Shown: piece after piece, positions 11,194-62,932 of the stretch | Numbering within the stretch: the first letter of the stretch is position 1 | How the letters are laid out: each line of letters begins with the position of its first letter | DNA from: a virus | Lineage: Duplodnaviria > Caudoviricetes | Reading direction: 5' to 3' (one strand) | DNA length: 64,000 nucleotides | Virus record (IMG/VR): IMGVR_UViG_3300021387_001438 | Location: 11,359 to 75,358 of that record | Program-made: the position numbers and the translations under genes | The notes under the pieces: generated by a model | Databases searched by the model: none | The model's input: the letters and a program-made list of their open reading frames with translations, nothing else | What the model was told of the DNA's origin: nothing

Positions 11194-14100
11194 ATGAAGA
11201 AAATTAAAGTAAGAAAGTCATCAATGATGGATTCAATTTTTAATTTAAAAAATTTATATGCAAGTGATGATTTTAATAATAAATTAAAAGATAAATTTTG
11301 GGATGAAGATTTAGTATCTGAAGCCTTAGAAAGATTTTTTGAGGGAGATTATGGTAATCTCCCAGATTATATTGCAAGAGCAAATGAAAAATATTCTGCT
11401 GGTGAAGGTGATAAATTAACCGGTATTTATCAATCATCTGCTAATGGGGCTTCTTCACCAAAGACAGATTTATGTATTATGTATTCAAAGAAAGATGATA
11501 AATATTTTTTATTAACTACTGATGAATACTTATTTAAAAACAATATTGCTGCTTTAGAAAAAGCAGAAAAGGAAGTCGCTAAGATTGAACAGAGAACTGG
11601 TGAAGTTAAAGGTGACCCTGCAAAACCAGAGTTACAAACAAATTTCTTAAATAGAGATACAAAAATCGTTGAAGGTTATGACTATAAAAACAGTTTAAAA
11701 GATGTTATTTGGTCTGATAAAGATGTTAAATTAGCATTAGAAAAGTTCTTCCATGAAGATTATGGTAATGCTAATCCTAGATTCGTAAAAGAAAATAAAG
11801 AAAAAGTTAGAAATCAATATGGTAATATCTTTGGTATTTATCCAATTGATGAACATAATCTTAATGATTTAGTTGTTTATTATAGTCAGAATGATGATGT
11901 AATTTATTTGTTATCTGTTGGTGATTTTGAAAACTTTAAGGCTTATTGGTTAACTGGTCAATATAAAGGTAGAATGTCTGAAAAAGAAGAAGAGGTTAAA
12001 GGTGATTATGGAAAAATTTTAACTCCTCAAGAATATACAGAACCTCTTGAAAAGGACCCAACAATTAAAAAGTTTTTAGCTCCTTTTATTAATCGTGGTG
12101 ATTTATTAGATACCGATTTATTAAATCCATCTAATAAGTTAGGTTATGAAGGTGATGAAGAAGAGGACGATAAAACTAAAAATAAAAAAGGCCCAGAAAT
12201 TTTAAGAAAACTTAATGACCTTAGACAAAAGGTTGCTAATAATGCTGCACCATTTAATGTAGCTTCTCCTGAAGAAAAAGAAAAGTTGTTAGCTTTCTTA
12301 GATGAATTATTAAGAATTAAGAATATTGAAAAAGCTAATTTCTATAAGAAGGGTACAAGCTATGATATTCCTGAACATAAATTAAATAAATTCCAGAATG
12401 AAGTTATTAGAAATTTATGGGCTCCAAAGAGAAATAAGAAAGCTATTGAAGAAGAAAACAAAAATCTTAAAGAAGCTAAAAAATTCTTAGAAGAATTTGC
12501 TACAACATATAATCAATCTGATGCAAAAGCTAAAACAAAGTATGATGAGCAGCTTAAAGAATTAATCGAAAAATTCTCTAGTAAGTTACCAAAGAGTAAA
12601 GGTCAAACAAAAAATATTGGTATTATTGGTAGAATTATTATGGTATTTAAAGATATCCTTGATAATCAAAAAGATAAAAAAGATAAAGATGGAAACATTG
12701 TTCCAGGAAAACAGATTATCTATAATTATCAAGCAAAAGATTTAGATTTATTATATTCATTAATTGATGATAAACTAGCTAAAAATGCAGAAGAAGAGGA
12801 CCATTTAAAAACTTTAAATTTACCTCTTGAGTACCATGGCGTTGCTCCTAAGTCAACAATTGCTGCAGTTAAAGCATTCTTAGAGGACCCTGAAAAGATT
12901 AAGAAGTCAAATGAAAAAGCTCAGGCAGATTATGAAAGAAATAAAAATTCTGATAAGTATAAGAAGAAAGAGCATGGCTTCCAAATTCCAGAGGATATTG
13001 TTGCTCAGCTACAACAGTTGGCAGAAGAATATAATATTTCTTATGAAGATATTATTGAAAAGATTGCTCAATTAGTATATCTAGAAAATAGAAGTACTCC
13101 ACAAGCAGTTGAAATTTTCTTTAATAGAATTAAAAAACCATACTATTTAACGGAGGATTCAAAGAGCATGAATGATTCAATTAAATATTGTGTATATTTA
13201 AATGGTGAACCATATGTTACATGTGATACAGAAGATGAAGCATATCAAATTGAAGCTCAAATTTATGCTGCATCAAACACAGAAGAAGACTTCCAAGAAT
13301 ATTATGGTTATTATCCAGAAGTTGAAATTAAACAAATCAGAGTTGCTGATTCCGTTTCTACTAATAAATTTGTTGATTTAGGTGAAGTTACAGATGAATA
13401 CACTCATGAAGTTTGTGGTCATATATATAAGTATAGAGGATATTATATTTATAATGATTTTTGTGATGATGTTATTAAAATTTCACCAATTCTTGAAGAT
13501 GGAGAAGTAATTACTGAAGAAGACGAACTTAAAGAAATTATGGTTAGTAATATAAATGAAGCTCGTATGTATATTGATGAATGTGTAGATAATAATCAAT
13601 TTGTCGAAGATTCAAAAGTAAATGATTTTGAATATTATAGAAAGCATAAAACTCCTACAGGTAGTGGCTGGGATATAATTAATGAAGAAAAGAATAAACC
13701 AGACCGTACAGCAGCTCATAAGCAGCATAGACAAGAAACTAACTGGCAAGACCCAGAAGGTATTTATACAAATTGGAGAGTAAAAGGAATAAGATTTGAT
13801 TTAAATGCTGCTGATGTTGATGGTATTACAGAAAAAGAAAAGAGTAAGGTTTATACTGGTAGAATCTTAATTATTGGTGAGCACTACTTTAAGAATAATG
13901 ATTCTGTTATTTCTGATACATGGGATACATTTGAATTTAAGTTTGATGTTGATGCAAACAATTTTACAATCTTTGGTTGGACAGATGCATTCCCAGTTGG
14001 TGAAAGAGATAAAATTGAATCTCTTGCGGCTAATGAATTTAGAAAACAGTATTTAAAGAAAAAAGAAGTAAATCTTGTTAGTGAATTATCAGAAGAAGAA

Positions 14101-27778: not shown

Positions 27779-28535
27779 TTTTTACCTCTTTATATAATAA
27801 TGGGAATTTTTTTCTTAATAATTCTGTTGGATTGTCAGTCTTAGCAAATGGACAGTTACATGCCATTTTGCCTTCTTGACAACCTCTTTTTTGACATGGA
27901 GCACCAGTTGTACTTATTGAAAATAAAATTGGGTCTAACTTATATAATTCTTCCCATATTCTTAATGTAACATATTGAGTTTCTAATGTATTTCTGTTAC
28001 AAATTCTTGTTGAAATCATTTGTTTAAATGCAAGTGGGTTAGCAGAAATAATTAAAACATTCCTTAATCCTTGAGGAGCCATATAACCAGCTGCATCATT
28101 ATCAATTCCATTTGTTACAGCATTTCTATAATCTGTCATAGATTTTCTGCAAGATTTTAAATAATCTTTTTCTTGATGCTTTTCCATAATATCATATGGA
28201 ACAACAAAGTCTGCTTTACCAGAATAATCTGAATATTGAAGACTTGCTGATGTAAATGTAAAGCCAGCAGTATGTCTTGTAATTTGTGCTAAGAATCTTC
28301 TTGATGCACCAACTACAACAATATTGATAGTTGCAAATCTTTGAATAGTAGTATGTGGTAATTCACACATCATTTGATAAGTTTCATCTTTTGATGACTT
28401 ATTATATAAATCAATAAAATCATTCATTGATTTAATGTTATGACCTCTTTGTGTTAATCTTGCTGCACAAACTGTCATTTTTCTTGAAGTTTCTAATACT
28501 TCTGGATTTAATACTTTTACTTCTATATTATTCAT
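27768..28535 (-). CDS. thyX: FAD-dependent thymidylate synthase
   Basis: RRFLAQITRH...SASLQY, RICNRN; start set at MNNIEV from the RBS. Confidence 0.85.
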   Translation of the reverse strand: MNNIEVKVLNPEVLETSRKMTVCAARLTQRGHNIKSMNDFIDLYNKSSKDETYQMMCELPHTTIQRFATINIVVVGASRRFLAQITRHTAGFTFTSASLQYSDYSGKADFVVPYDIMEKHQEKDYLKSCRKSMTDYRNAVTNGIDNDAAGYMAPQGLRNVLIISANPLAFKQMISTRICNRNTLETQYVTLRIWEELYKLDPILFSISTTGAPCQKRGCQEGKMACNCPFAKTDNPTELLRKKFPLLYKEVKNEN

Positions 28536-28950
28536 TTTGAACACCTTCCTTAGTAGGACGTTTTAAAACCATACCTGCACTAAAAAGAGTTTCTGATACA
28601 GACTTTTTATCTTTGTTAGTATCAAAATATTCTCTTACAAATATATTTTTTTCATCCATAAGAAGTGCTCTGAGTAAAATAAAATAGTTGATACAGTCTA
28701 AAAGCTTCTCATCCCATTTTTCCATTGTAAAATTATCATAATTTTTAGCCATATCAAAAACTGACATAATGTGTTTTGTTAGATATCCTAATAAAGTATT
28801 TACTGAATTAGTATCTAACAATTGTGCACCAGCTTTAAAACTATGTAATCTATCACTAGAAAAATCATATTCTTTACTTTTGGAAGCTAATAGTTCTGAA
28901 CAACTATTTAAGGTATTTTGCAAAACGATATTGAATTCCTTTGGTGTCAT
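28528..28950 (-). CDS. All-alpha NTP-pyrophosphatase-like protein (DUF1599/Nmad1-like)
   Basis: KSKEY...DRLHSFK, YLTKH, EKLLDCINYFIL pattern; located in the nucleotide cluster. Confidence 0.5.
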   Translation of the reverse strand: MTPKEFNIVLQNTLNSCSELLASKSKEYDFSSDRLHSFKAGAQLLDTNSVNTLLGYLTKHIMSVFDMAKNYDNFTMEKWDEKLLDCINYFILLRALLMDEKNIFVREYFDTNKDKKSVSETLFSAGMVLKRPTKEGVQNE

Positions 28951-29158
28951 GTTGTTTAATCCTTTCTGATATTTCTACTAAGTCGTCACTTGAAATTAAA
29001 ATTTCAAGATTCATCTTAGTCTTAATGTATTCTTCTAAATCAATACCAGTATTATATACAATGCCAGTTTCTAATGATTTAAAAGAATTATCATTTATTT
29101 TTTCAAATAAGTCAAATTGAGTTTTACCTAATTTAACTAAAGTATACTTGTTAATCAT
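28904..29158 (-). CDS. Hypothetical protein
   Basis: ORF in operon with GTGAT RBS. Confidence 0.55.
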   Translation of the reverse strand: MINKYTLVKLGKTQFDLFEKINDNSFKSLETGIVYNTGIDLEEYIKTKMNLEILISSDDLVEISERIKQHDTKGIQYRFAKYLK

Positions 29159-38872: not shown

Positions 38873-40420
38873 TTAATCTCCTTTATATTTTGATAAATCC
38901 ATTTTAAACATTTCATCAGTATACTCAACACCTTGTTCAAGAGATTCTTTCATTCTTCTCTCAACCCAATTTTCTTGATAAAATACATGATAGAATACAG
39001 GTTCTTTTGAACCAATTCGATGAACTCTTTTTAATGACTGTGCCCAGTTTTTATATACTGGAGTAGAGAAGATTATACAATGATTCCATAACTGATAATT
39101 TCCACCAGCTGAGCCACTATCAAAATTCATAAGAATTATATTCTTTTTATTTGTTAATCTTTCTTCTTTTGTTTGACTTACAAATCTATCATAGAAAAAA
39201 GTTGATTTAATCTGACCACACATTATATCTATATTGTATTCTAATTCTTCACAAAGATTATATAATTCAAATAATTCTGGAGTGTAATTATAAAACAGTA
39301 CATAATTGTCCTCATTATTTTCTAATAAATTTCTTAATTGATTTAATCTATCTTTGTTATACCAAATTGAATCTTCTGCATTTCCTTGAAATCCTATTGA
39401 AATTTGTCTTGCTCTTAAATACATTCCAGCAGCAGTTTGACATAAATAATTAAAATCAGGATAATCAAGGTTTCTATAAAATGGATTATTTACTTTTGAT
39501 TTTGTTTTATAAATTGAAATATCTTCTACTTCAATATTTCTTTTAGCTAAATAGCTTTCTATTATATTTCCTCTTACCTGTTCTGATACTAACATATTAA
39601 AATCAATTGTTGCAGGAAGAGTATGATTTATAAAAATTTGTTCTGGTAGGTCAACAACCTCATCTGATTTTATTGTTAATCCATATTGATGAACTAAATC
39701 ATAAAATTCATCTTCATTTTTATATCCAACAATTGGTTGTTCCCAGTCTTTTAAACTTGGAACGTGTCCCATGATACAAAACTTATCTTTAAATTTTGTT
39801 TTACTCATTGTACAACCAAGAAGAGATAATTGATTATGCATATCAATAAATCCAACTGAAAATGGAGTACCACTTAATAAATATAAATATGATTTCTTAG
39901 CATAAATTTTACAATAATCATTTAACATTTTGATACATTTTGAACGAGCAGAATCCGCATTTTTAATCATATGAGATTCATCAATTATTAATGCAATATT
40001 ATCTCCTTTAGAATTTTTAATAAAGTCCATAAATGTATCTTTGATTTTAATAATCTTCTTTGGTTTTGAATGCATGTATTCTTCAGTTCTTGCAGTAAAT
40101 AATGCTTGATAATTAACCACAATAATCTGACCATTTTCAGTATTATAATCTATCTTTTTAACGGTTTTAACATTATATTTATCAAGTGGAATATCATATT
40201 CTTTTGACCAATATAGCCACGAACCATTAGTATTTTCTGTTTCTAATGCTTTATCTTTAAGTGTAACAACAATGATTTTTGTACAATTATTTGCTTCAGC
40301 TAATGCAAGAGCTGTAATTGTTTTTCCAAGTCCCATATCTAAGAATAATCCATATGATTGTTTTGATTTTAAATCATCAACTATTTTCTTTTGAAATGGA
40401 AATAACTTGTCATAAATCAT
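38873..40420 (-). CDS. SNF2-family helicase
   Basis: LFLDMGLGKT, IIDESH, LSGTP, QSLKRVHRIGSK. Confidence 0.9.
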   Translation of the reverse strand: MIYDKLFPFQKKIVDDLKSKQSYGLFLDMGLGKTITALALAEANNCTKIIVVTLKDKALETENTNGSWLYWSKEYDIPLDKYNVKTVKKIDYNTENGQIIVVNYQALFTARTEEYMHSKPKKIIKIKDTFMDFIKNSKGDNIALIIDESHMIKNADSARSKCIKMLNDYCKIYAKKSYLYLLSGTPFSVGFIDMHNQLSLLGCTMSKTKFKDKFCIMGHVPSLKDWEQPIVGYKNEDEFYDLVHQYGLTIKSDEVVDLPEQIFINHTLPATIDFNMLVSEQVRGNIIESYLAKRNIEVEDISIYKTKSKVNNPFYRNLDYPDFNYLCQTAAGMYLRARQISIGFQGNAEDSIWYNKDRLNQLRNLLENNEDNYVLFYNYTPELFELYNLCEELEYNIDIMCGQIKSTFFYDRFVSQTKEERLTNKKNIILMNFDSGSAGGNYQLWNHCIIFSTPVYKNWAQSLKRVHRIGSKEPVFYHVFYQENWVERRMKESLEQGVEYTDEMFKMDLSKYKGD

Positions 40421-48692: not shown

Positions 48693-49433
48693 TTATAAAT
48701 TCTCACAAATCCAATTATGACAGATAGTTGTATCAACAATTACCTCTGATTCATTACGAGCTTCATAGCATGCCAAGATAGCATCTGGATTTGTAATGAC
48801 CATTTTATATAATTTTGGATTTGTATTATTTCCAGCTTTATTAAATCTTTCAGCAAACCATCTTGCTTTTTCTTTATCAACAGTCCATGATAAACCTTCA
48901 GGCTTTCCATTATGACTTACTCCTCGATAGACAGTTACTCCTGCTGGAAGTGAAGCAAGTCTTTTTAGAGTATTAAATGTATCAATCTCTTTTTTATCCA
49001 TCAAGAAATCTTTATTTGCTTTTTTGAAATATCTTATTAGTTCTCTTCTATTTACATTATTATCTTGATTTGGCCATTCTTCCATTACATAGAATTCAGA
49101 TAATAGCTTTGAAAAATCTTCATTAGATAAATAGATATTAACATATTTGAAGAAAGTCAAGTAATAACTTTTATTTAACAACATGACAATTCCAAACAAA
49201 TCTTTTGCATTATCAATCTTTTCAAATGTTTCAGACTTAAAGATTTCATAATCCTCTTTTTTATATAAATCTAAAATTTTTGGATTATCTTGATTTTCTT
49301 TTACTGATACATATAAATTATTACTTGTAAACGGATGTTGAATTATAAAAGGAATTTTTGTTGCTTTAATTGGCACTGCCAAAAATAGCAACTTACTCAT
49401 TTCTTTAATCTTATCTAAATTAGTTTGTTTCAT
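48693..49433 (-). CDS. Putative ADP-ribosyltransferase-fold protein
   Basis: R-S-E triad-like motifs VYRG, LSWT, NESEV; AAGGAG RBS. Confidence 0.55.
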   Translation of the reverse strand: MKQTNLDKIKEMSKLLFLAVPIKATKIPFIIQHPFTSNNLYVSVKENQDNPKILDLYKKEDYEIFKSETFEKIDNAKDLFGIVMLLNKSYYLTFFKYVNIYLSNEDFSKLLSEFYVMEEWPNQDNNVNRRELIRYFKKANKDFLMDKKEIDTFNTLKRLASLPAGVTVYRGVSHNGKPEGLSWTVDKEKARWFAERFNKAGNNTNPKLYKMVITNPDAILACYEARNESEVIVDTTICHNWICENL

Positions 49434-49461: not shown

Positions 49462-50084
49462 TTGCCTCTACCATACACTAGCTCACTTTGCCTACACACT
49501 ACCATACTCGACTCTACCATAACATGACTGCCTGTTACTTTACCATAACTGGTCTACTCCTCGCTTTGCCGAAACTTCACTTTACTAAACCTTACCTTTG
49601 CATTTCAAATCTTGACTTCGCCCATACGATATTATGCTGGACCCAACGTCACCGATACATTGTTACACCAATCTTTGCCTAAACTAGGATGTACTATACA
49701 ATTCCAAAACGGTACCATAAATTGCTTTGCCTAAGCTCCACGATGCAAGACTTTACCAATACTCTACCTTACGTCACTAGACTTCACCTTGACAATACCA
49801 TGTCTTACTTTACCACAACTAAACACTAATTAACTTCGGTCCACTTTGCCTTGACTAAACTTATCTACACCGATACTGTTTATTAGTCTACTATACTGTA
49901 CCTCTACCTTACCAAACTTTACCATAGCACGACCAATCCTTACATCACCTTCACTAAACTTAATGGCACTTTACTTTTCCGTAACATAACCTTTCAAGAC
50001 TATGCCAATGCACAACTTCTCTTTAATACACTTTGCCAAAACGCCACCCTACCAATCTTGACTTATCCATTACAAGACGAGGCC
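49462..50084 (-). ncRNA. 5-nt periodic NGY-NN repeat array (putative guide RNA array), downstream of the RAMP gene
   Basis: Minus strand e.g. AGT-tt-AGT-gaa-GGT-ga-TGT-aa-GGA-tt-GGT-cg-TGC-tat-GGT-aa-AGT-tt-GGT-aa-GGT; GY steps of 5,6,5,5,5,5,6,5,5,5,6; no minus-strand ORF of 60 aa or more in the track. Confidence 0.75.
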
Positions 50085-50120: not shown

Positions 50121-50143
50121 GGAGAGAGACTAAATCTCTCTCC
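50121..50143 (-). promoter_or_regulatory. Hairpin spanning the stop codon of the RAMP gene
   Basis: GGAGAGAGA / TCTCTCTCC perfect 9-bp inverted repeat with a 5-nt loop containing the TAG. Confidence 0.6.
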
Positions 50144-50720
50144 AACTGAATGAACCCTTACCGGAATTACGCCACTGAAGAAGTCCATTGAATTTTCCAT
50201 AATCTAACCATTCTTTAATTAATGGTAGGTCTTCATCACACAACATAACAATCTTAAATTTACATGTTGCACCGGCAGCAATTTCTTCAGAAATAGCAAG
50301 CGAGATTCTTTCACCCTGCATTGTTTGACATCTTAGAGGTCTCTGACATTCTGTGATTTCAGAATAATTCTCAATCACATTTTCTCTTCCTTCAACAAAT
50401 ACTCTTAGGTCAATATGCTTCTTGAAGGCTTTTAATTGACTAGATAGAGTACCTTTAACTTTTGATAGTGCTGAACATGCAGACTTGAAGAATCCTTTTA
50501 ACTGATAGTCATAAATAAATGGCTTACCATCTTTGGTTCTTGGAAAGAATGTTTTACCTTTATCAACAACATTATCTTTTCCAATGGCTTCAATCTCTTC
50601 TTCTAGCTTCTGAGCATCTGGAGCCTTACTACCGATGAATGAACGATATACATCTTTATCTCCTGTTTGAGTTCCTAATAAACCCTGTAAAAAAGTTACT
50701 TCAATATTTAATGTTTTCAT
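50130..50720 (-). CDS. Stand-alone Cas7/RAMP-like protein (Vipr-like), 196 aa
   Basis: TAAGGAG RBS supports MKTLNIEV at 50720; RAMP hallmarks LNIEVTFLQGLLGT, GKPFIYDYQLKGFFK and the G-rich loop YGKFNGLLQWRNSGKGSF. Confidence 0.75.
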   Translation of the reverse strand: MKTLNIEVTFLQGLLGTQTGDKDVYRSFIGSKAPDAQKLEEEIEAIGKDNVVDKGKTFFPRTKDGKPFIYDYQLKGFFKSACSALSKVKGTLSSQLKAFKKHIDLRVFVEGRENVIENYSEITECQRPLRCQTMQGERISLAISEEIAAGATCKFKIVMLCDEDLPLIKEWLDYGKFNGLLQWRNSGKGSFSWREI

Positions 50721-50802
50721 AATTTGTTTTAATCTCCTTAATTTATTATTTGTTTTAATCTTCTGAATTTTTTGGTCTTCACATCTTGGATAATCTACAT
50801 CT

Positions 50803-51103
50803 TTTGCCAATGCCATACAAAACCACACTTTACCATTACCGGACCGGACAATACTTTTCCATTGCACTTTTGGACAATACTTTACCAACACGACAGCCAA
50901 CTATTCTATGCTGGTACTTTACCAACACTGTTCCAAGCTATTCCATTACAGTACCATACCAAACCTTACCAACACTCCACTGAACAAGGCCTTGCCGTCA
51001 CAAATCTTTTCTTGGTATCACATCACCATCACAAAACCACGCTTTACCATTACCGTCACAACGCCACACCTCACCGTCACAACGCCACACATCACCGATA
51101 CTT
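50803..51103 (-). ncRNA. 5-nt periodic NGY-NN repeat array, upstream of the RAMP gene
   Basis: Minus strand GGT-ga-TGT-gt-GGC-gt-TGT-gac-GGT-ga-GGT-gt-GGC-gt-TGT-gac-GGT; steps 5,5,5,6,5,5,5,6; internal 21- and 26-bp period duplications. Confidence 0.75.
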
Positions 51104-51107
51104 TTAG

Positions 51108-51425
51108 TTACAAGAAATCTACGATGAAGTTTGTGATATATGCCATAAACAATACTTTATCTTTGGTATAGAACGACATATAGGTTTCTCCTGTCGACTT
51201 GTCACAGGTGTAGCAAGAATATAATCCGGAAGAATTTGTATCTGACGATGGATAGTCAAACACTAGTTTAACTTCTCTTGAATTACCATCAAGATTAAAT
51301 TTAGTTGGCAAATCTTTTTCTTTTAATTTTTCTGACAAAACCCGTTTGATAAACTGAACTGCCAAATTATCTTGTAGGTCTGGAGAATTAACTAATTCCG
51401 TCAAATTCTTAATTTCTTTCTGCAT
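51108..51425 (-). CDS. Hypothetical protein
   Basis: GAGGTGAG RBS; its stop abuts the upstream array. Confidence 0.6.
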   Translation of the reverse strand: MQKEIKNLTELVNSPDLQDNLAVQFIKRVLSEKLKEKDLPTKFNLDGNSREVKLVFDYPSSDTNSSGLYSCYTCDKSTGETYMSFYTKDKVLFMAYITNFIVDFL

Positions 51426-61830: not shown

Positions 61831-61858
61831 AAGTACGCACTCACTAGAATGCGTACTT
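61831..61858 (-). terminator. Hairpin over the AAA gene stop codon
   Basis: AAGTACGCA / TGCGTACTT inverted repeat. Confidence 0.45.
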
Positions 61859-62932
61859 AGCTAATGTATCTGCACTAGTCTCATAATACTTCAACTCAGC
61901 TGCTCTATCGACGATAGGCTCTGGAAGAATTATGTCCTGTGCATTGACGATATCATTCATTGTAGCAATTACTTTGAAGTTAGGACTAATTTCTATTAGA
62001 TTACCTTCAAAGTATATCTTATCTTTGTTATCTAAGAAGTTCTGCATGAATCTCATGGTATCTATCGGCAATAAACCAAACTCATCTAGGATTATTGGCT
62101 CACCATTTATCATGGCTTCCTGGAATTCACTTGGTTTGAACTGTGGATTACCATTTGCATCATTGAATGTGAAGGTCTTCATCAAATCTGTTGCATCCAT
62201 GGTACCTGAGCAAGCAATTATCTTTGCTGTTGGATTTTGTAGCATGGCGGTTGTGGTTTTACCACTTCCAGCTGGACCATAGAATATTACCAATCTGTTG
62301 TTGACCTTGTTTGTCATATTTGGAGCAAGTTGCTGAATATCTTTGATGATATTCTTCCACTCATCTGACTTTATCTTATTTGCCACATCATTTGTATACA
62401 TATGACCAATCAATTTGAAATAACCATTCACATATGCAGCTGCGCTTGTGTATGACTTTGAATTATAGCATAATGTATTGACAAATCTTGGAGATGGATT
62501 GAACTTGAACTCCGAGAAGAAGTTGACTAGCCTTGTTGCTATGCTAGTCTTTAGTTCTGCTAATGCAGCCAGCATTGCAGCTTGCTTTGCAGCATCATCT
62601 TGCTCTTGGTCAGGCTGACTTTGATTTTGGTCAGGTTGCTGAGGTTGAGTTTGCTGAGTCTGCTGTACGGGTCTTGGATTACCTTGTCTGCGATAAGGAT
62701 ATCCAATCGTATTTGGATTTGGATATGCAACTCGTAAGTCTAAGGCTTTCTGAGATGCACTGTCTGGACGGCCGGATTTTTCATCCATGATAATCTCGTC
62801 CAATTTGTTAAGTACTGTTTGGTCGGTGATGACATACCAACCATTTTCCCACCATATATTTGTGGTTGTTATTTTACCACGGTGGATGGAGACAACTGCT
62901 CCGCGATTAGTTTTTAATGTTGATAAATCCAT
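61844..62932 (-). CDS. MoxR/CobS-like AAA+ ATPase
   Basis: Walker A YGPAGSGKT, Walker B IILDEFG, FKVIATMN, PIVDR. Confidence 0.85.
   Translation of the reverse strand: MDLSTLKTNRGAVVSIHRGKITTTNIWWENGWYVITDQTVLNKLDEIIMDEKSGRPDSASQKALDLRVAYPNPNTIGYPYRRQGNPRPVQQTQQTQPQQPDQNQSQPDQEQDDAAKQAAMLAALAELKTSIATRLVNFFSEFKFNPSPRFVNTLCYNSKSYTSAAAYVNGYFKLIGHMYTNDVANKIKSDEWKNIIKDIQQLAPNMTNKVNNRLVIFYGPAGSGKTTTAMLQNPTAKIIACSGTMDATDLMKTFTFNDANGNPQFKPSEFQEAMINGEPIILDEFGLLPIDTMRFMQNFLDNKDKIYFEGNLIEISPNFKVIATMNDIVNAQDIILPEPIVDRAAELKYYETSADTLAKYAF

Follow-up and report, generated by a model that had tools for sequence, protein, structure and literature searches.

What is carried by a stretch of phage DNA that lies between two minus-strand genes, contains no credible open reading frame and repeats itself every five bases? 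The stretch in question (49462–50084) is part of a 64,000-nt window, the whole of the DNA analysed, which covers positions 11359–75358 of a phage genome of 75,358 nt, a single AT-rich contig (29% GC); coordinates given here are those of the window. An initial annotation, drawn up from the letters of the DNA, had described the stretch as an array with a two-level grammar, in which 5-nt units are grouped into blocks by 6-nt steps, and had suggested that it may encode several guides. Our analysis places it within a known kind of system: it is very probably a guide-RNA (vrRNA) array of a phage VIPR locus, namely the downstream one, in the 'YNNNG' variant.

VIPR is a CRISPR-like, RNA-guided DNA silencer found in phages, which combines a lone ancestral RAMP protein (Vipr) with vrRNAs of alternating GGY and NN, reads dsDNA through the NN positions while skipping every third target base, plays a role in conflicts between phages and has been divided into seven types, I–VII (bioRxiv 10.64898/2026.04.26.720920, 10.64898/2026.04.26.720927). 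VIPR has been put forward both as a CRISPR ancestor and as a compact tool that can be programmed, with the type II layout alone characterised; the characterised vrRNAs have 9–16 repeats, and vrRNAs frequently show internal degeneracy (VIPR preprints). Cryo-EM reported in a 2026 preprint places one protomer on each repeat, with a pocket for Y that sterically excludes purines. The part of the first preprint available to us mentions alternative NNNGG, YNNNG and NNNNG repeats, and the legend of its fig. S18 mentions 'staggered arrays with overlapping vrRNAs', which stand outside the architectures confirmed by small-RNA sequencing (10.64898/2026.04.26.720920). WGT/NN-like variants also appear in fig. 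S10 of a VIPR preprint (10.64898/2026.10.21.760802), as far as the accessible part of that source goes.

To describe the repetition in the stretch, we computed its base autocorrelation, which reaches 0.426 at a lag of 5 nt, 0.472 at 26, 0.446 at 31 and 0.394 at 21, compared to about 0.21 at other lags. Peaks thus occur at lags of the form 5k+1 (26, 31 and 21), and those at 26 and 31 exceed the value at lag 5. Within the whole 64-kb window, a period-5 signal appears at two places only, here and at about 50790–51105. The plus strand of the stretch is poor in G (G 9.8%, C 30%), and the gene-sense minus strand is therefore poor in C (C 10%). A dynamic-programming parse of the minus strand across 49467–50084, in which each unit is anchored on a G followed by a pyrimidine (G-Y), scored 150, against 11.2 ± 7.3 with a maximum of 33 in 200 shuffles, showing that the proposed five-base periodicity goes beyond what base composition produces. 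The RNA fold of the array showed nothing beyond shuffles (z −0.8).

The parse yields 120 steps in the array, of which 96 are 5 nt long and 24 are 6 nt long. These 6-nt steps are evenly spaced, at 5.17 units per block with a standard deviation of 0.82, and none of 10,000 permutations matched this regularity (permuted standard deviation, mean 4.06, minimum 1.84). Across 49885–49961 the parse returns a step run of 5,6,5,5,5,5,6,5,5,5,6,5,5,5, identical to the one given in the initial annotation, which had also stated that each 6-nt step there precedes GGT. That statement holds inside this segment; array-wide the rule is GG[Y/A], because the triplet after a 6-nt step consists of GG followed by T (11), C (10) or A (3) in all 24 cases, whereas G is the first letter after a 5-nt step in 18 of 96 cases. 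Inside the blocks, the mean unit has G at position 2 in 82% and Y at position 3 in 84% of cases, with G at position 3 in 1% of units in this array. Variation is thus spread unevenly, with G2 and Y3 fixed and N1, N4 and N5 variable, differing between blocks.

Each block can be written as GG[Y/A]NN followed by three to six N-G-Y-N-N units, the final unit of which has one extra base, or equivalently as G-(YNNNG)n. The extra base in this last unit is A/U-rich, and punctuation by one extra base every 4–7 units is found in both arrays. Block lengths are 26 nt (13 blocks), 31 nt (6), 21 nt (2), 36 nt (1) and 16 nt (1); as a shorthand for the array, 26/31 is more apt than the 21/26 given earlier. Of the two Gs at a boundary, the first keeps the phase of the upstream lattice and the second opens the downstream one. 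Across the 23 blocks, the head reads G-G-Y-R-A-A-G-T, with G in 23, G in 23, Y in 20, A in 16 or G in 5, A in 17, A in 18, G in 23 and T in 19.

The ten GGYAAAG sites reported previously are all present, with plus-strand 8-mer starts exactly as listed and every site on the minus strand. Successive sites are separated by 114, 73, 36, 57, 26, 52, 109, 26 and 52 nt. The window as a whole contains 29 such sites, where 10.2 ± 3.0 would be expected; the two arrays account for 14 of them. Since GGYAAAG opens only 10 of the 23 blocks, it is the G|G register shift, and not this motif, that marks boundaries in general. The upstream array follows the same pattern, with 46 five-nt and 14 six-nt steps in its parse, GG after 12 of the 14 six-nt steps and a tandem pair of near-identical 21-nt blocks. 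The features of the locus are collected in Table 1.

Table 1. Features of the VIPR locus in window coordinates, with the type II locus used for comparison.
Feature	Coordinates	Strand	Remarks
Downstream vrRNA array	49467..50084	-	23 complete blocks; dynamic-programming parse and block table
vipr gene (P0001), 196-aa protein with predicted Cas7/RAMP fold	50130..50720	-	start ATG at 50720; AAGGAG ribosome-binding site before the ATG
Upstream vrRNA array	50790..51105	-	about 12 blocks; grammar as in the downstream array
Inverted repeat, 9-bp stem and 5-nt loop	50117..50150	-	spans the stop of vipr; followed by the AT-rich leader that precedes the downstream array
P0002, 246-aa gene	48693..49433	-	ribosome-binding site after the last block; phrog_4776, function unknown
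P0003, 105-aa gene	51108..51425	-	upstream of the VIPR locus; no Pfam or PHROG family
Block starts (high coordinate), first 12 of 23	50084, 50068, 50037, 50006, 49980, 49949, 49923, 49902, 49871, 49850, 49814, 49788	-	parse
Block starts (high coordinate), last 11 of 23	49757, 49731, 49705, 49679, 49653, 49622, 49596, 49570, 49544, 49518, 49492	-	parse
GGYAAAG block heads, n = 10	49486-92, 49538-44, 49564-70, 49673-79, 49725-31, 49751-57, 49808-14, 49844-50, 49917-23, 50031-37	-	plus coordinates
Escherichia phage SUSP1 locus (KT454805), type II VIPR	vipr 28474-29061; vap1 28031-28471		four vrRNAs

The gene between the two arrays encodes a 196-aa protein without a Pfam or PHROG family. A longer open reading frame, extending up to 50900, was considered for its start and rejected, as it reads the array in frame. 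Homologues are abundant and unnamed, with more than 3900 at the level of clusters of 90% identity and 1592 clusters at 50% identity, and IMG/VR as well as uncultured gut phages contain them; a scan with the single protein additionally found a homologue on four contigs from Clostridia metagenome-assembled genomes (MAGs). The locus belongs to a huge uncharacterised branch of Vipr proteins from gut and rumen phages, with arrays in which short punctuated modules are densely strung together. An AlphaFold (AF2) model built on 72 homologues reached a pLDDT of 91.2, and its best Foldseek matches were type VII Cas7 and Csm3 (E about 1e-8, TM 0.57–0.60, probability 1.0). The model contains a long beta-hairpin at residues 123–147 and a G-rich loop at 175–190, and the sequence profile matches Cas7 in the PDB (8yhd family, E 7.8e-6) as well as the G-loop of Csm4. 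From this modelling we are confident in assigning the protein as a small stand-alone RAMP with a predicted RRM core, thumb and glycine-rich loop. The gene for this Cas7-fold Vipr is flanked on either side by minus-strand N-G-Y-N-N arrays.

Comparison with the Vipr of phage SUSP1 was made at the profile level, where hhalign aligned the 72-sequence profile over 174 columns and the full length of the protein, with an E-value of 1.8e-4 and a probability of 48%, a weak match by sequence; tblastn from the 196-aa protein did not reach the SUSP1 Vipr. The GxGxWR motif of the G-loop is aligned, such that W178-R179 of SUSP1 corresponds to W183-R184 here. Residues that contact G1 in the SUSP1 protein are altered (H17 to T17, D177 to Q182), changes that fit the degenerate first letter of the triplet in our array.

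In minus-strand orientation, the 5'-most element of the locus is the 105-aa gene, followed by the upstream array, the ribosome-binding site and the 196-aa gene, the inverted repeat over the vipr stop, an AT-rich leader, the downstream array, and finally an A-run with a ribosome-binding site and the 246-aa gene. The inverted repeat is kept in three relatives (L012, L018 and L019), whereas the leader behind it diverges; scoring it as an intrinsic terminator gave a negative result, and it may serve in processing or attenuation between gene and array. Both outer genes were considered as accessory (vap) genes and rejected: P0002 has no homologue beside vipr in 18 related loci, and tblastn with P0003 found matches only in L018, L012 and L019, the closest relatives. 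By this comparison P0002 appears as a neighbour of vipr and not as its conserved partner. Scans of the stretch for Rfam families, tRNAs, promoters and terminators yielded nothing useful and no RNA family, and blastn of the locus against GenBank phages gave no match. No CRISPR-like tandem repeat was listed near the locus, eight neighbouring proteins are without a Pfam family, and there are no cas genes nearby. The genome carries a phage helicase and further phage families, making this a minimal non-CRISPR locus in a viral genome.

The VIPR locus lies within a block of minus-strand genes of replication type, including a DNA helicase (phrog_62, 38873–40420) and an ATPase or clamp-loader-like protein (61844–62932). 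This position suggests that the locus is probably expressed with early or middle genes.

We then compared the arrays with those of related loci. A period-5 array adjoins the homologue in 10 of 11 viral loci that encode it, the eleventh being truncated just after the gene, and also at every further locus examined (L012 and L014–L019, from Logan/ENA assemblies and Clostridia MAGs); in every related locus, arrays and vipr gene lie side by side on one strand. In 17 arrays of the branch, the six-nt steps recur at regular intervals, with p ≤ 0.005 in 15 of the 17, across base compositions from AT-rich to GC-rich. GG follows 71–100% of six-nt steps in these arrays, compared to 15–32% of five-nt steps, and unit composition is similar throughout the branch (G2 82–92%, Y3 about 84%, G at position 3 1–6%). 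Mean units per block range from 3.9 to 8.6 among the relatives. An A-rich motif is conserved, which occupies the block head in the window array (GGYAAAG) and the block tail in other relatives (xGCAAA|GG). Regular six-nt steps were seen neither in the SUSP1 arrays nor in a second array type of one relative (L003), indicating that the two-level grammar is a property of this branch and not of VIPR as a whole.

The SUSP1 system offers the closest characterised comparison. The two Vipr proteins are of similar size (195 aa in SUSP1, 196 aa here), align over their full length and share the W-R of the G-loop, and in both phages arrays lie upstream and downstream of vipr on the gene strand. However, the SUSP1 vrRNAs have 12–14 strict, uninterrupted GGY/NN repeats and a conserved, structured tail of ~40 nt, lie ~125 nt apart and show no regular 6-nt steps, whereas the blocks of the window array have 4–7 repeats and lack a tail, their first G is degenerate, and a vap1 homologue is missing. 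At the window locus we thus found none of the hallmarks of type II VIPR (9–16 repeats, a structured 3' tail and vap1), nor a conserved accessory gene. Likeness extends further to the Cas7 filaments of Class 1 CRISPR systems (type III Csm3, type VII Cas7), the best structural matches, in the RRM core, thumb hairpin and G-rich loop, and Class 1 Cas7 and Vipr each place one subunit on an RNA segment of fixed length. Unlike Class 1 CRISPR, the locus has neither CRISPR repeats nor cas genes nearby, its period is 5 nt instead of 6 nt, and the guide information is non-contiguous.

A closer fit is provided by the single-G and staggered forms of VIPR, to the extent that the published mentions describe them: a lone Cas7-like Vipr gene in a phage, flanking intergenic arrays of 5-nt period, a fixed G-Y and a degenerate first letter. 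Consecutive putative guides would also abut, offset by 1 nt in register and with no spacer between them. The window array fits the wording of the fig. S18 legend, with a +1 register shift at every block boundary and a boundary G common to both lattices, and its layout probably corresponds to the published 'staggered array'. Relative to what the partly available staggered-VIPR papers contain, documented here are the statistics of block length, the invariant restart on GG, the GGYAAAG head, and block deletion and shuffling at strain level. Our contribution is accordingly a quantified grammar and strain-level evidence for punctuated blocks as modular units, and not a new kind of system.

To examine how the arrays vary, DNA contigs of related strains from four public runs were placed on the locus. 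In a 36-nt deletion (49807–49842), the GGCAAAGT head of the 36-nt block is fused to the body of the next block, and a 62-nt deletion (49787–49848) removes exactly the 36-nt block and a 26-nt block, rejoined at GG. The joints of these one-block and two-block losses sit in block heads. Related strains also carry in-phase 5-nt insertions behind 49704 and 49738, and the upstream array of strains X5 and X7 has a replaced interior. Among the listed substitutions in the array, 11 of 29 fall on Y3, and 9 of these 11 exchange C and T; several changes at position 2 restore G.

At a greater distance, the Vipr proteins of L012 and L019 are 89% and 88% identical to that of the window. In the first block common to L012 or L019 and the window, or to each other, the variable pairs are kept while N1 and Y3 differ; beyond this block, the two relatives have mostly other blocks, and the few that are shared stand in a different order. 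The upstream array is absent from L012, and that of L018 has one extra unit. Whole-block deletions, reordered shared blocks and 5-nt insertions, together with the lack of regular 6-nt steps in SUSP1, indicate that the blocks are modular. Gain, loss and shuffling between strains proceed block by block; the blocks evolve like CRISPR spacers, being lost, duplicated or shuffled whole, with slippage of single units. The initial annotation had placed guide boundaries at the 6-nt steps or at GGYAAAG motifs; the blocks bounded by 6-nt steps are indeed what is lost, duplicated and reordered, but GGYAAAG does not serve as a general mark, being present at 10 of 23 heads.

How could such an array work? 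By analogy with the published type II system, the array would be transcribed, and one Vipr protomer would bind each repeat, holding the fixed G and Y and presenting the variable bases. These would pair with dsDNA, every third target base being skipped, and genes of rival mobile elements would be silenced. At a boundary, an anchor G followed by a second G would put no pyrimidine in the next protomer pocket, such that the register would end there and restart on the second G; the A/U-rich letters beside the boundary are candidate sites of nuclease cleavage. As the Y pocket excludes purines and G is rare at the Y position (1–6%), the filament register should be unable to run through G|G, suggesting that each block is a separate guide. 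We consider it rather likely that each block is its own short, tail-less guide. An explicit rule for where a guide ends and the next one starts would be useful for array annotation, target prediction and estimates of the minimum length of a Vipr guide.

Two observations bear on how far this independence goes. Under the published NN rule, a 26-nt block specifies about 8–11 bases, far below the 9–16 repeats of characterised vrRNAs, so that fully autonomous blocks look under-specified; and because other relatives carry the A-rich motif at their block tails, the true cut site may not be G|G. A more radical reading, possible but put forward only tentatively, is that in the gut-phage Vipr branch the working guides are tail-less mini-vrRNAs of 4–7 repeats, with a G|G break that the filament cannot read and a decoding logic unlike type II. 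Mini-vrRNAs of this kind would be non-unique under the NN rule, implying either that many blocks act together (multivalently, on one transcript or in many RNPs) or that the first letter is read as well, giving three informative bases per pentamer.

The low information content of a block could also mean that functional vrRNAs span several blocks, the extra base being punctuation inside a long Vipr filament or R-loop, for instance a hinge or a relief of the register, and not a guide boundary. In addition to the contrast between 4–7 units specifying only 8–14 bases and the 9–16 repeats of characterised vrRNAs, the lack of a conserved tail or obvious processing structure between blocks and the frequent internal degeneracy of published vrRNAs are in line with this idea. 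It is nonetheless doubtful, as strains can lose exactly one or two internal blocks, the order of shared blocks differs between relatives and identical blocks occur in tandem. Furthermore, the first variable pair is semi-fixed (R-A in 18 of 24 blocks, A at position 5 in 17 of 23), and a contiguous target would consequently need periodic AA, while block lengths from 16 to 36 nt leave no fixed structural period.

Other functions for the arrays have less in their favour. Solo vrRNAs of SUSP1 satellites, which come without a vipr gene, redirect a rival's VIPR (VIPR preprints), and the present arrays might by the same token be decoys, vrRNA-like sponges that titrate or redirect the Vipr of a competitor; this is very unlikely, since every related locus has its arrays beside a vipr gene of its own, in the same orientation, whereas the published decoys are defined by the absence of that gene. 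Still less probable is an element acting as DNA and not as RNA, such as phased iterons or bent DNA at an origin or packaging site, even though the mean period of 26/5 = 5.2 bp is near half of 10.4 bp and the locus lies among replication genes, including the DNA helicase. Against such an element stand the strong strand asymmetry (C at 10% on the gene-sense strand), the hypervariability of the variable positions between strains while the fixed G-Y is kept, the range of mean units per block among relatives, which leaves the mean period unfixed, and the strict linkage and orientation to a gene for an RNA-binding protein of predicted Cas7 fold.

Returning to the preferred reading of the blocks as guides, we searched for their targets, and none emerged with any of the reading rules applied. 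For self-targets under the NN-skip-1 rule, windows of 5–12 units matched against the 75-kb genome gave maxima equal to those with shuffled unit order, and multi-block guides built under four junction rules found nothing above chance in the genome and the related loci. The 223 blocks of the 17 arrays had seven perfect matches in 358 kb of related loci, compared to 3–12 in shuffles, and with the skip-1 rule the 18 related loci likewise gave nothing beyond shuffled controls. A three-letter code (N4 N5 N1) with a skip of 0 or 1 nt showed no enrichment, and with a 2-nt skip re-found the arrays only. Three exact scans of viral contigs with long blocks from relatives returned 0, 12 and 21 matches, at chance level and without extension into the flanks. 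The composition of the variable pairs, compared with codon positions 1–2, was not discriminating for the window and weakly favourable for L012 and L019 taken together.

An 8-unit block of L015, from a Eubacteriales MAG, equals, in frame, the first two codon letters of a conserved motif, I-E-V-V-Q-D/E-Y-K, in a conserved protein of ~1000 aa encoded by the viral contigs L033, L038, L040 and L052. As a target this match was rejected as most likely due to chance, since the number of matches is at chance level and the phages are apparently unrelated to the host.

Two further relatives show how such arrays appear in assemblies and how they may differ within one genome. The contig of L018, a near-identical assembly of 74.7 kb, breaks just after vipr, inside the downstream array, which suggests that such arrays break assemblies and that their length may often be under-reported. 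Upstream of vipr in L003 (3051–3525), a second array consists of strict GGY/NN runs of 13–20 units that each end in a conserved TGGCA before the next GG, so that two array styles may coexist in one phage.
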